Virus record (IMG/VR): IMGVR_UViG_2778261316_000006
Reading direction: 5' to 3' (one strand)
Length of the DNA: 33,304 nucleotides
From: a virus
Taxonomy: Monodnaviria; Loebvirae; Hofneiviricota; Faserviricetes; Tubulavirales; Inoviridae
Positions 15,001 through 18,000 of the stretch are shown here, one piece after another (within the stretch, counting starts at the first letter, position 1; every line of letters starts with the position of its first letter). The position numbers were made by a program.

Positions 15001-18000
15001 CTGAGGAATGACGCCCTAATGCGCATAATGACGTTATGCTAAAGAGGCCGCTGCGGGATTCGATTTTCGCAGCGGCCTTTTCAACATAACGAGTCACACA
15101 TTATGCGCACCAATGGTAAGGATGGCAGAATCTGGCGGGAATCGTTGACACTGGCCGTCAACTGGCTACTATCGACAGTGATTCAAAATCATCCGTTTCT
15201 CCAAACGAATCAGAATCAAATGTCTGTCAGCAGTAAGTGAACGGCCTGACCTCACCAATCAGGCCTGTTCATCCAGTTAGTTGGTAAATCTGTACCTGAT
15301 ACACGAGAATCAAACACCACTTCTTCAGTGCCATCACCATGATGCCGGATAATCTGGTAACCGGATTGCGGGTTCTGGCTCTCAGCTTCATAAGCAGCCC
15401 GGAATGCTGGATCTTTGAGAAGCATCACTTTCAGCTCCTGATGTGTCATGAATTTTTCCATGATAAGCCCCGATGAATGCTGCCGCGCCGAATCAGCCAT
15501 AACGCTGAAAATGGAAACTGTACGGCTTGGCCAACCCCGGACAGCAACAAAACAAGTTTTGTCACTGACCGGCGTTATCTTTCAAAACAGACAGTTAACG
15601 ATTTTTTGTCTGGTGTTTATGCGTGAAATTTCGTACGTACGAAATTCACCACCAATAAACAAACGGACGATGACTGACCGGAAAAGCAATGCCGTCAGCA
15701 TCATGACCACGCATTACCTGATTGAGAAGCCTTCTGACTTCACGGCGCTCAGGCCTGGTCATCATCATATTGCGATACCAGGACGGCGATTTATCAAACC
15801 ATCTGGCACAACTGGCAAAATGTGAACCTACACGACGATAAGACTTAAGGCGGCCACCGGGAAGTCGGTCACGCGCCTTATTTTTTACAGACATAATAAA
15901 TCCTCTAAGTAACTGAATACCTAGAAGATGTCGTACTGTTCATACCCCATAAAAGTTAACGCCATAATAAAAATCCATACAATCAGTTCAGGTTGTCCCG
16001 GAACAGTTCACCGCTCCTCGCGGCGCTGCGGGGCGTCGCCCTGCTCCGGTCAACCTTTCTGACCTGAAGCATCACCATAATATCAGTCTTGTTGCTTTCA
16101 CTGGTACGGGAACCGAAGAAGCTCCAGCCGGAACTGGCCTTACTGTCTTTCTGTTCAGCAAGGCCACCAAGTAAAATAATATCACCATCTGCAAGGCTGA
16201 CTTCGGTTGTTACATCACGCTTGATAAGGGTTGGCGAGTTATTGACGCCGGTTTCAGTGGTCACAAAGTTGGAAAGCTGCTGCTGAATCTTGAGATCCAT
16301 TGTCCGACTTTTGATTGATGGCGTTACGTTAAACAAAACACCGCTGGAACGATATTCAACGGATTGCGTGGTCGTATTGTTATTCACCGTAACACTGCCC
16401 AGTACTGGCACATCAGAGCCGACTGAAAAAGACGCTGAGGCATTATTTTTTACCCGCAGTCGTGGCGCACTGACAACAGTAAAACGACTGTCGGTTTTAA
16501 GCAGATTGAAAATGGCATCAATGGAGCCGGTTCGAATATTGATAAAATTATCCAGTCCGGCAGCACCAACTGAAATATTGAATTTATCAGACAGAATTTT
16601 AGCCGCTAAAAGAATGCCGGAGCCGTCAGACTGCGAGGTCTGAACCTCAAAAACATAACCAGAAACAACCACTTCATCACTCATCGTATCCAGCGAAGTG
16701 ACCAGTGTTTTCAGGATGGCGATATCCTCTTTCGTACCATAATAAACCAGAATATCACCGGTTCGATTGATGTAGTTGCTTGCCCCTGATGAACCTTTTA
16801 GCGAATCGTCAGAAATCACGGCTCCACTGTTATTGAAGGAGCCTGAAACGTAGCCGCCAAGAATATCAGACAGGTAGGCAACAGAACGGTACTGAGGCGT
16901 ATAAGTCCATGTATAACGTGGCTTAACCGGCTCTTTCGGCGTATAGGGCGCGATAAAATCAACACCCTTTTTCGTCCATATTCGAATGTTCATATTGCCA
17001 AGATAACGGGTTACAAATTCCCGTTCATCAATATCAGGTGTTAACCTGAATGTAATCATTCGTTCATCATTAACAAGCTGTGGATCTAGCATATACGGGA
17101 CTTTAAGCACCTCACTATAAATAAGAGAAATAGCCTCCGGTAGCTTGACTTTATTTAATTCAAGCTCTGACCCTGCGAAAGCACATGAAGAAAATAGTAG
17201 CGTTAATGCGAGTAAAATCTTTTTCATTATTTTTTCCCCGTATAAAGCGTCACACGCTCACCATCAATAATTCCGCTCATCAACATCCCTTTGTAATTAA
17301 AACTGGATGCAGGAACGGCACGCAAAACACCGGCACCGTTAACAAGAATCACAAACGCCCTGCCTTCACTGGTCATTCTCCCTGATATACGCCACTCGGT
17401 TGAAAGTGGCGGTTCAGCTGGTTCTGAGGGAGTATCTGGTGCTGGAGTAGCAGCGGAAGAACGAAACATGGCCGCATCACGTACATCTGTTGTAGCCAAA
17501 TCTGGCGAGGGATCGCTTCGGCCAAACGTGCTGAAAAATGAGTAAATCAGCCAGCCTGACCCGATAAACATCAATGGAAAAAGCACAAGAAAGAACCTGA
17601 CTTTGCCAGAATTCCAGATGCTCTGGCGTTTATCTGTCTGCTTTTCATTACCGTTATTTCCTTCATAGCTTTTATAAAGTTCAAAAATATCAGGGTTATA
17701 TTTATTGCGATAACTGGTGACGAGGTTGCTTTTATAGATTTTGTGGCCTGAATATACGTCAATGCAGTAATGATTATTCAGGCCCAACGCTTTCAGCTTG
17801 CGCATCCGGTAAGTTGTTTCTATTTTGTCTTTCAGAAAGCGAGCAATATTAGAAAGTGACTGATTTACAATAACCAAATCACAGCTAATACCCGTTTCAG
17901 GGTGCGTAAAATGACGATGTTCAGCAATAAATGATTTCTTCTCAGCCGTCATATCCTTATCGCTACCGAAGATTCTCCATGCTTCATCAATAACAATTAA

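Follow-up and report, generated by a model that had tools for sequence, protein, structure and literature searches.

The stretch of DNA analysed here (the window) is an inovirus record of 33,304 nt, IMGVR_UViG_2778261316_000006, which contains two tandem filamentous prophage pairs, phage A and phage B, all on the minus strand. Between the attP module and the secretin gene pIV, phage B has about 870 bp and phage A about 285 bp, close to the values of about 870 and 284 bp given in a preliminary description of this DNA. In phage B the interval holds two small open reading frames, ORF1 and ORF2, a leader micro-ORF between pIV and ORF1, a hairpin over the ORF1 ribosome-binding site, a palindrome at the end of ORF1 and a further hairpin (hairpin 2) between the palindrome and ORF2. 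Both genes and the palindrome had been noted beforehand, and our analysis bears out their positions and strand and shows, for the two genes, the purifying selection expected of genuine genes.

The region from 15100 to 16000 is 100% identical to chromosomal DNA of the uropathogenic E. coli strains UTI89 and NU14, in which the genes adjoin the dif-region prophage and have no annotation beyond "hypothetical protein". Two Y. pestis loci carry the same arrangement, after pIV and before dif, with identities to the window of 100% for ORF1, 97% for ORF2 and 100% for pIV. The ORF1 and ORF2 matches to the Y. pestis prophage genes place phage B in the CUS-1/YpfPhi group. Derbise & Carniel (2014; PMC4266046) described two ORFs "with no predictable functions" beside attR of YpfPhi, YPO2280a and YPO2281, which are conserved in CUS-1 of E. 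coli O18:K1:H7 and occupy the site where CTXphi carries ctxAB; they named the function of the two ORFs as an open question. By gene order, ORF1 is the homologue of YPO2280a and ORF2 that of YPO2281. The likeness in position to the CTXphi toxin genes, drawn in the preliminary description, is thus correct and already in print. We found no characterization of YPO2280a or YPO2281 in the open-access literature, the TraDIS paper on UTI89 says nothing of the prophage, and a nucleotide search of the phages collection returned no match.

ORF1 (15646-15894, minus strand; RefSeq WP_001399975.1) encodes a basic protein of 82 amino acids (aa) with a pI of 11.5, 14 Arg, 4 Trp, a GRAVY score of -0.85 and no hydrophobic segment. 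Its earlier portrayal as a basic, Arg/Trp-rich protein with a strong Shine-Dalgarno sequence (SD) agrees with these values; what had escaped notice is that this SD, a GAGG 7 nt 5' of the start (plus-strand 15902-15905), is part of a hairpin, in its 3' arm. When genomes were scanned with an alignment of ORF1, 17 loci came up, belonging to Yersinia, Pantoea, Brenneria, Xenorhabdus, Zobellella and a metagenome-assembled Enterobacteriaceae genome; to these we added three Salmonella phage types. The gene has 82 codons everywhere and no indels, with dN/dS values of 0.06-0.26 over the 17 loci; for ORF2, dN/dS is about 0.15-0.2. We also checked the possibility that the coding gene lies on the opposite strand. 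A 125-aa plus-strand frame (15448-15825) runs across ORF1, the spacer and the start of ORF2, but relatives do not maintain it as an open frame, and we judge it spurious. As judged from these substitution patterns, ORF1 and ORF2 are true minus-strand genes under purifying selection.

Between pIV and ORF1 lies a leader micro-ORF of 14 codons (15921-15965, minus strand) that encodes MALTFMGYEQYDIF, ending in GYEQYDIF and a TAG stop. Its start is 17 nt past the pIV stop codon (15983-15985), and its TAG is 26 nt ahead of the ORF1 ATG. The leader is seen at all 17 genome loci, in the three Salmonella phage types and in two plasmid relatives. Throughout the ORF1 loci it has 11-14 codons and the terminal pattern (G/A)Y(E/Q)(Q/E)xDIF-stop. 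Among 15 distinct sequences, changes in the last eight codons are nearly all at third positions (GGG/GGA, TAT/TAC, GAA/GAG, CAG/CAA, GAC/GAT, ATC/ATT), and this period-3 variation is a signature of selection on a translated peptide. The DIF-stop ending recurs in the plasmid relatives L019 and L028, at a protein identity of 35-44%.

The leader hairpin (15900-15929, minus strand; ATCTTCTAGGTA-TTCAGT-TACTTAGAGGAT) carries the leader stop codon in its 5' arm and the ORF1 SD in its 3' arm. Over 14 distinct sequences, 98.2% of the cells in its 12 pairs are paired, as against 40-57% when the pairing is slid by 1-3 columns. One pair is altered on both sides in two sequences, and several positions switch between G:U and A:U or G:C. 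The G:U pairs are possible only on the sense strand, so the hairpin is a sense-strand structure. It is also the only terminator-like element that a terminator scan reported.

The same layout recurs well beyond the close relatives. All 13 distant loci have a mini-ORF upstream of the ORF1 relative with its stop shortly before the main start, and a hairpin that pairs the mini-ORF region with the main SD or start. Examples range from ATG-TAG, ATG-ACG-TAA and ATG-CTT-TAG to frames encoding MYLLQEHF, MRYIQEHW and MGIFYWGQDIF. When a mini-ORF is required to start with ATG, to span no more than 15 codons, to have an SD-like tetramer and to stop 8-50 nt ahead of the main start, it is found in 11 of the 13 distant family members and before 1 of 105 neighbouring genes (Fisher p ~1e-12). 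The distance from stop to main ATG in these 11 members is 19-28 nt. This enrichment and the constant spacing mark the gate as a hallmark of the ORF1 family. Comparison of the loci shows a recurrent predicted design, in which an SD-preceded mini-ORF of 1-14 codons ends 19-28 nt upstream of the main start and a hairpin covers the main ribosome-binding site; the leader stop codons are mostly TAG. By analogy with leader-controlled genes, the family-wide gate suggests that the dose of the protein is tied tightly to translation, as would be the case for toxic or stoichiometric proteins.

In the mechanism that we propose, the 14-codon leader would be translated and its ribosome would stop within the 5' arm of the mRNA hairpin, whose 3' arm would otherwise sequester the ORF1 SD. 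The leader ribosome could then melt the hairpin, terminate and reinitiate 26 nt downstream, or both, so that the ORF1 start would be reached by an incoming or a reinitiating ribosome. With the SD sequestered, ORF1 would be initiated only by ribosomes that translate the leader and terminate on it. Such a gate would hold a dose-sensitive protein, most likely a nucleic-acid-binding one, at a low and translation-coupled level. We describe ORF1, with modest confidence, as a dose-limited nucleic-acid-binding effector.

The C-terminus of the leader peptide (15921-15944) is acidic and hydrophobic, reading E-Q-x-D-I-F-COOH, and relatives end in QEHF, QEHW or LDSL. The C-terminal tip of the single-stranded-DNA-binding protein SSB is DDDIPF, and the DIF ending of the leader might mimic it.

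ORF1 matches no family in the Pfam, PHROG, NCBIfam, PADLOC or PDB profiles, where all hits were at noise level; a PDB profile match of the N-terminus of Prp4 to the motif PDDLV.P..KKPHIYY is short and attributable to chance, and a comparison with the ribosome-rescue factor ArfA gave nothing. The AlphaFold2 model, built on a deep alignment, contains one long helix (residues 38-61) between extended ends, a basic N-terminal and an aromatic C-terminal segment. No structural neighbour emerged from a fold search with this model that included the PDB. In the model, ORF1 resembles a protein that folds upon a partner, possibly nucleic acid.

In a profile search of 1.84 billion cluster representatives, the ORF1 family comprises at least 149 representatives at E<=1e-3. 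All are basic proteins of 49-146 aa, and at the extreme C-terminus they share the pattern P.WW...TRP.RR...L...G.D.D..(F/W)P...KPH.YYW. A Pfam and PHROG scan of 128 members gave scattered single matches and no informative assignment. Members are carried by plasmids, tailed phages and inoviruses, some of them environmental phages or plasmids from non-pathogens; the plasmids include an IncFIB Salmonella plasmid, a small Proteus plasmid and plasmids of Halioglobus and Phaeobacter. Distant relatives are solitary genes whose neighbours vary. On the 10-kb Proteus plasmid L022 (NZ_CP145480.1), an unannotated family gene lies between rep/helix-turn-helix genes and a gene for a type ISP restriction enzyme. 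In two tailed-phage contigs, L024 (8001-8258) and L025 (1508-1753), the gene sits within a tRNA array, with genes for PTH2 (peptidyl-tRNA hydrolase) and an RNaseH-like protein nearby; the former contig has 26 tRNAs and a tmRNA, the latter eight tRNAs. A third tailed-phage contig, L032 (2137-2439), shows a resemblance to a tRNA 3' end just upstream of the gene. This association of distant members with tRNA genes hints at a link to translation.

The longest frame of ORF2 (15252-15500, minus strand) encodes 82 aa and bears the ELKVMLLKDPAFRAAYEAE motif. The gene and its N-terminal motif were thus rightly recognized in the preliminary description. Homologues and phrog_6642 begin at M14, which makes 15252-15461 (69 aa, pI 5.15) the probable gene; the RefSeq entry WP_001298440.1 is annotated from M18, at 15449. 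The conserved core of this acidic protein reads ELK..LLKDPAFRAAYEAE..N...YQIIRHhDDGTEEVVFD. Searches of Pfam, NCBIfam, PADLOC and the PDB gave no family, and the one PHROG match, to phrog_6642, is of unknown function. The motif LLKDPAFRAAYE (residues 10-22) resembles LLHDPLFRQRVE of ArfA, and we treat the likeness as not significant. An assignment of ORF2 to ArfA through an LL.DP.FR motif was rejected: aligned by hhalign with an ArfA sequence, it reached a probability of 36% over 38 columns, and ArfA was not among the matches of ORF2 in the PDB and Pfam searches. Motifs of the LL.DP.FR type are common at the N-terminus of XRE-type antitoxins.

Around its start, GCTTATCATGGAAA can pair with TTTCCATTTTCAGC about 35 nt upstream (15455-15517, minus strand), with the in-frame ATG at 15500 inside the loop; judging from this complementarity, the ORF2 start may be masked by structure as well. 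At the position of ORF2, some Xenorhabdus prophages carry either a different small ORF whose N-terminal motif is similar (MKKIMTFREKLELKKREENPEFIKVYGE) or an extra small acidic ORF (L011:3382-3540, L013:3382-3540, L009:3317-3532). The slot after ORF1 is a variable site for small genes.

We read the palindrome (15614-15661, minus strand) as a stem-loop that starts at the ORF1 stop codon (15646-15648), which it overlaps. The near-perfect repeat of about 27 bp reported earlier, GTGAAATTTCGTAC followed by GTACGAAATTCAC, lies at 15623-15649; its perfect core of 10+10 nt is at 15627-15646, and an imperfect extension reaches the outer limits. It is not a chance feature, since a perfect half-length of 10 arose in 1 of 5000 shuffles of 15100-15985. 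Relatives keep the stem AATTTCGT/ACGAA(A/G)TT and vary in the central four nucleotides (ACGT, ACGC, GCGC, ATGC, GCAC), and a sense-strand T:G wobble occurs in loci L006 and L039. With the stem kept and the centre varying, the palindrome behaves as a stem-loop, and the perfect symmetry in E. coli is one of several variants. It is missing in Pantoea (L004), half-deleted in Brenneria (L005), where both genes are kept, and degenerate in a Salmonella phage (L034); conversely, it is present without ORF1 in loci L040-L043. From this distribution it appears to be dispensable. The half-site does not occur elsewhere in the window.

Hairpin 2 (15533-15576, minus strand; CCGG.CAGTGACAAAA-CTTG-TTTTGTTGCTG.CCGG) is the best-conserved non-coding element of the region. 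Its 18 pairs are 97.9% paired over eight distinct variants (37-53% in slid controls), and two pairs are altered on both sides. It is retained whether ORF1, ORF2 or the two together accompany it (examples are loci L004, L034, L040 and L041); Xenorhabdus relatives have no recognizable hairpin 2. The ORF1-ORF2 spacer and its flanks (15455-15670) fold more stably than shuffled sequence, with z = -3.9 as DNA and -3.5 as RNA. We considered the palindrome and hairpin 2 as intrinsic terminators and rejected this, as neither has a T-run 3' of it.

The distribution of these elements is that of separate modules. ORF1 occurs without ORF2 in Pantoea (L004), Zobellella (L017) and two Salmonella phage types (L034, L037), and ORF2 without ORF1 in Enterobacterales loci L040-L043. 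In three of the latter (L040, L042, L043) the order from pIV onward is palindrome, hairpin 2, ORF2, dif, and in L041 the ORF2 part stands alone beside dif. ORF1 is 83-87% identical between the E. coli phage B and the Salmonella phages, whose pIV secretins are only 26-28% identical, which indicates that the dif-proximal cassette has been exchanged between inovirus backbones.

On balance we favour the following picture. The interval would be the dif-proximal accessory end of a CUS-1/YpfPhi-type filamentous prophage, made up of independent modules rather than a two-protein system: a leader-gated basic protein of a widespread family, an optional and independent small acidic cargo protein, and sense-strand hairpins that act in cis. 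As stem-loops, the palindrome and hairpin 2 would belong to an attP-proximal non-coding region that persists with or without ORF1 and ORF2. They would not serve as an operator for the two proteins. They may act in cis on the mRNA, in 3'-end protection or in processing between the cistrons, or on the packaged single strand, as a packaging signal or complementary-strand origin by analogy with Ff.

Several observations weigh against this picture. That the leader is translated, and that ORF1 is coupled to it, is predicted from conservation. The leader's own SD is weak in the phage of the window, and Xenorhabdus leaders have good SDs of their own; given the weak SD and a start 17 nt after pIV, the leader here may relay ribosomes arriving from pIV. 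Confidence in the ORF1 model is no more than moderate (pLDDT 77, pTM 0.50), and no known structure neighbours it. In view of the small ORFs with an ORF2-like N-terminal motif in the Xenorhabdus loci L011 and L013, ORF1 may be loosely linked in function to a small protein encoded downstream. In B. alni the palindrome has changed symmetrically (TAC/GTA to TGC/GCA), which would fit a dimeric DNA-binding protein too. Neither the palindrome nor hairpin 2 is followed by a U-tract, and since the packaged strand of filamentous phages has mRNA sense, roles of the hairpins in mRNA and in single-stranded DNA are inseparable.

The alternative that survives best concerns the hairpins, which may be essential intergenic cis elements of the Ff kind, a packaging signal and/or a complementary-strand origin, with the ORFs as incidental cargo around them. 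In position, right behind the last morphogenesis gene and ahead of attP, they correspond to the Ff intergenic region, and the strong single-stranded folding of the spacer is as expected for such elements. Hairpin 2 is conserved with covariation across phages whose secretins have diverged to 26-28% identity, irrespective of either ORF, and the wobble pairs are specific to the sense strand, which is the packaged one. The same evidence would be produced by mRNA structures, however, while several lineages do without the palindrome and Xenorhabdus without a recognizable hairpin 2. We regard this single-stranded-DNA role, argued by analogy, as a tentative proposal with a real but lesser chance of being right; for the non-coding parts it is compatible with the modular picture.

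More doubtful is the view that ORF1 is a solitary toxin or addiction factor, with a leader gate of the mok/hok or tap/repA type that is silenced through folding of the mRNA or by an antisense RNA. Toxic genes such as hok/mok and the MS2 lysis gene typically have their translation coupled to a leader and masked by a hairpin. A toxin would stabilize its element and would explain why the cassette survives next to dif. Solitary leader-ORF1 cassettes, with or without ORF2, lie directly upstream of the chromosomal dif in Pantoea piersonii (L004:2925-3402), Brenneria sp. (L005:2925-3622) and Zobellella aerophila (L017:2925-3308). Upstream of them are ordinary chromosomal genes (XdhC/MobA/WapI, MetE-like/LacY, HAD hydrolase) and no phage genes, and a search for a left-hand dif-like site flanking them found none, yet their leader and ORF1 are intact and ORF1 is still under purifying selection. 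One relative on a plasmid-like contig also stands among ParA, PIN and Gp49/HigB-type genes. Against a toxin, ORF1 is hydrophilic and without a family match, unlike known type I toxins, and the 17 loci have no positionally conserved antisense promoter over the leader; the weak sites present come from coding sequence and point away. The solitary cassettes, which may be remnants or mini-elements, could reflect selection for the cassette through addiction or benefit, or mere prophage decay from the far end. A further Enterobacterales genome that retains ORF2 alone at dif (L041:2850-3383) favours caution, because retention may then reflect no more than such decay.

An equally speculative reading takes ORF1 and its more than 100 relatives as an undescribed, widespread family that acts on the translation apparatus or on nucleic acids, with the mini-ORF as a "ribosome sensor". 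Protein output would then be proportional to initiation, termination or recycling on a leader of 1-14 codons, as might suit a counter-measure to defence systems that target translation or tRNA, or a solo addiction toxin. The hints that lead to this rather unlikely proposal are the neighbouring tRNA arrays and peptidyl-tRNA hydrolase genes, the predominance of TAG among leader stops and the persistence of the cassette beside dif after loss of the phage.

The preliminary description had likened the two proteins and the operator-like palindrome to a toxin-antitoxin or regulator pair. In its full form, ORF1 would be a basic toxin or regulator and ORF2 its acidic antitoxin or partner, a type II pair autoregulated through the palindrome. 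The opposite charges, the adjacent genes on one strand, the non-random palindrome and its symmetric change in B. alni all agree with such a pair, and inoviruses are known to carry toxin-antitoxin systems as accessory genes. The distribution has nevertheless largely refuted it already: neither gene requires the other, and distant ORF1 relatives are solitary with varied neighbours. The genes neither overlap nor abut but are separated by a structured gap of 184 nt with two hairpins. The palindrome is positioned downstream of ORF1 rather than at a promoter (nothing resembling one was found there), and is dispensable, being lost in the Brenneria locus L005 where both genes persist. Profile searches of both proteins, proposed at the outset as a check, gave no toxin-antitoxin, defence or DNA-binding family and no helix-turn-helix match. 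Together, the non-obligate genes, the structured gap, the dispensable palindrome and the lack of a family match contradict a type II or autoregulated pair, to which we assign very little probability.

The least probable reading, in our view barely worth entertaining, is that ORF1 and ORF2 are host-directed virulence cargo analogous to ctxAB: the analogy of position and the modest in vivo fitness effect reported for YpfPhi/CUS-1 as a whole (PMC4266046) speak for it, but neither protein has a hydrophobic N-terminal segment or a toxin-family match (no dedicated prediction of signal peptides or secretion motifs was made), ORF1 relatives occur in environmental phages and non-pathogen plasmids, and the sole CUS-1 mutant cited with an in vivo defect affects puvA, a gene for a virion protein (PMC4266046). 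A relation to the Xer activation factor XafT (DUF3653) of IMEX elements was discarded, as neither ORF has any Pfam match at E<=10 and distant ORF1 relatives are not Xer-associated.

The cassette is bounded by an attP-derived junction (15012-15113, no strand assigned) that consists of two inverted dif-like sites around a GC-rich stem; an Rfam search gave nothing beyond sub-threshold noise, which fell over this stem. Near-identical attP modules are present in the otherwise unrelated phages A and B (7310-7413, 15008-15113, 24163-24256). The copies at the A-A and A-B junctions match exactly, and the one at the B-B junction (24163-24256) deviates at a few bases. The entire block is duplicated 9145 bp downstream in the tandem copy of phage B (24397-25110, minus strand), with no differences across 15100-16000. 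There, ORF2 lies at 24397-24606, hairpin 2 at 24678-24721, the palindrome at 24759-24806, ORF1 at 24791-25039, the leader hairpin at 25045-25074 and the leader ORF at 25066-25110. An E. coli "untypable plasmid" of 9565 bp (L023, NZ_CP128883.1) has the same genes as phage B and is probably the episomal, circular replicative form of the phage. In phage A, a 78-aa ORF (14311-14547, plus strand) containing KKYTSLRVPEERKMELEKAAIEVSYATGRMVKWTDMAFYL resembles small dif-adjacent ORFs of Xenorhabdus prophages containing TTMAIVAERKLKLERLAIDASHVAGKSISWTDLVNHLI, which are minus-strand ORFs in loci L008, L009, L014 and L016. These ORFs probably represent a shared regulator module of the ribbon-helix-helix type.

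The prophage that carries ORF1 and ORF2 as unexplained cargo has epidemiological links to high-virulence E. coli K1 and to third-pandemic Y. pestis. That they are independent of each other removes the tempting toxin-antitoxin interpretation, while the leader ORF and its hairpin offer a testable handle on ORF1 expression. That the same gate is shared by an unannotated family whose genes lie on plasmids, tailed phages and inoviruses suggests a general function in mobile elements, one that annotation has missed. Hairpin 2 is a candidate cis element for packaging or for the complementary-strand origin, and no such signal has been mapped for this phage group in the literature that we found.

At the level of genes, ORF1 and ORF2 do not differ from YPO2280a and YPO2281 of YpfPhi and their CUS-1 homologues, which lie in the same place between the secretin gene and attR/dif. 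The positional observation is thus a rediscovery; the leader ORF, its hairpin, the ORF1 family with its gate, and the palindrome and hairpin 2 as sense-strand stem-loops are new findings. The YpfPhi/CUS-1 literature that we found is silent on the leader, on the hairpins, on the family at large and on the two genes being independent. Compared with the small accessory genes that form the type II pair PfiT/PfiA at the end of the filamentous prophage Pf4, ORF1 and ORF2 are similar in location and in their opposite net charges; they differ in forming no obligate pair, matching no family, being separated by a wide structured spacer and having no operator at a promoter.

In Ff phages (f1/M13), gene IV is followed by a terminator, a packaging-signal hairpin and the hairpins of the minus-strand origin. 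Phage B likewise has stable sense-strand hairpins just past its secretin gene and near the integration/replication site. In contrast to the Ff intergenic region, with which they share no sequence similarity, these hairpins alternate with two protein-coding genes, and relatives can do without the palindrome.

Translation that depends on a leader ORF is known from mok/hok of plasmid R1, tap/repA of IncFII plasmids, ermC/cat attenuation and the mini-ORFs of lambda bar and CreT; minigenes have reportedly been described for CreT and axe-txe. The ORF1 gate resembles these systems in having a short upstream ORF with an SD and a main ribosome-binding site buried in a hairpin that the leader ribosome would open. 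One subfamily has the conserved leader peptide ending in DIF, and others have mini-ORFs of one or two codons. Unlike the known systems, it has no evident antisense RNA, antibiotic-resistance function or role in tRNA sequestration. It further departs from them in that the masking stem contains the leader stop, which keeps a fixed distance of 19-28 nt to the main ATG, and in that the gated protein is hydrophilic and basic. Translational gating by a leader ORF is thus known as a kind, and here it is attached to the unnamed ORF1 family.

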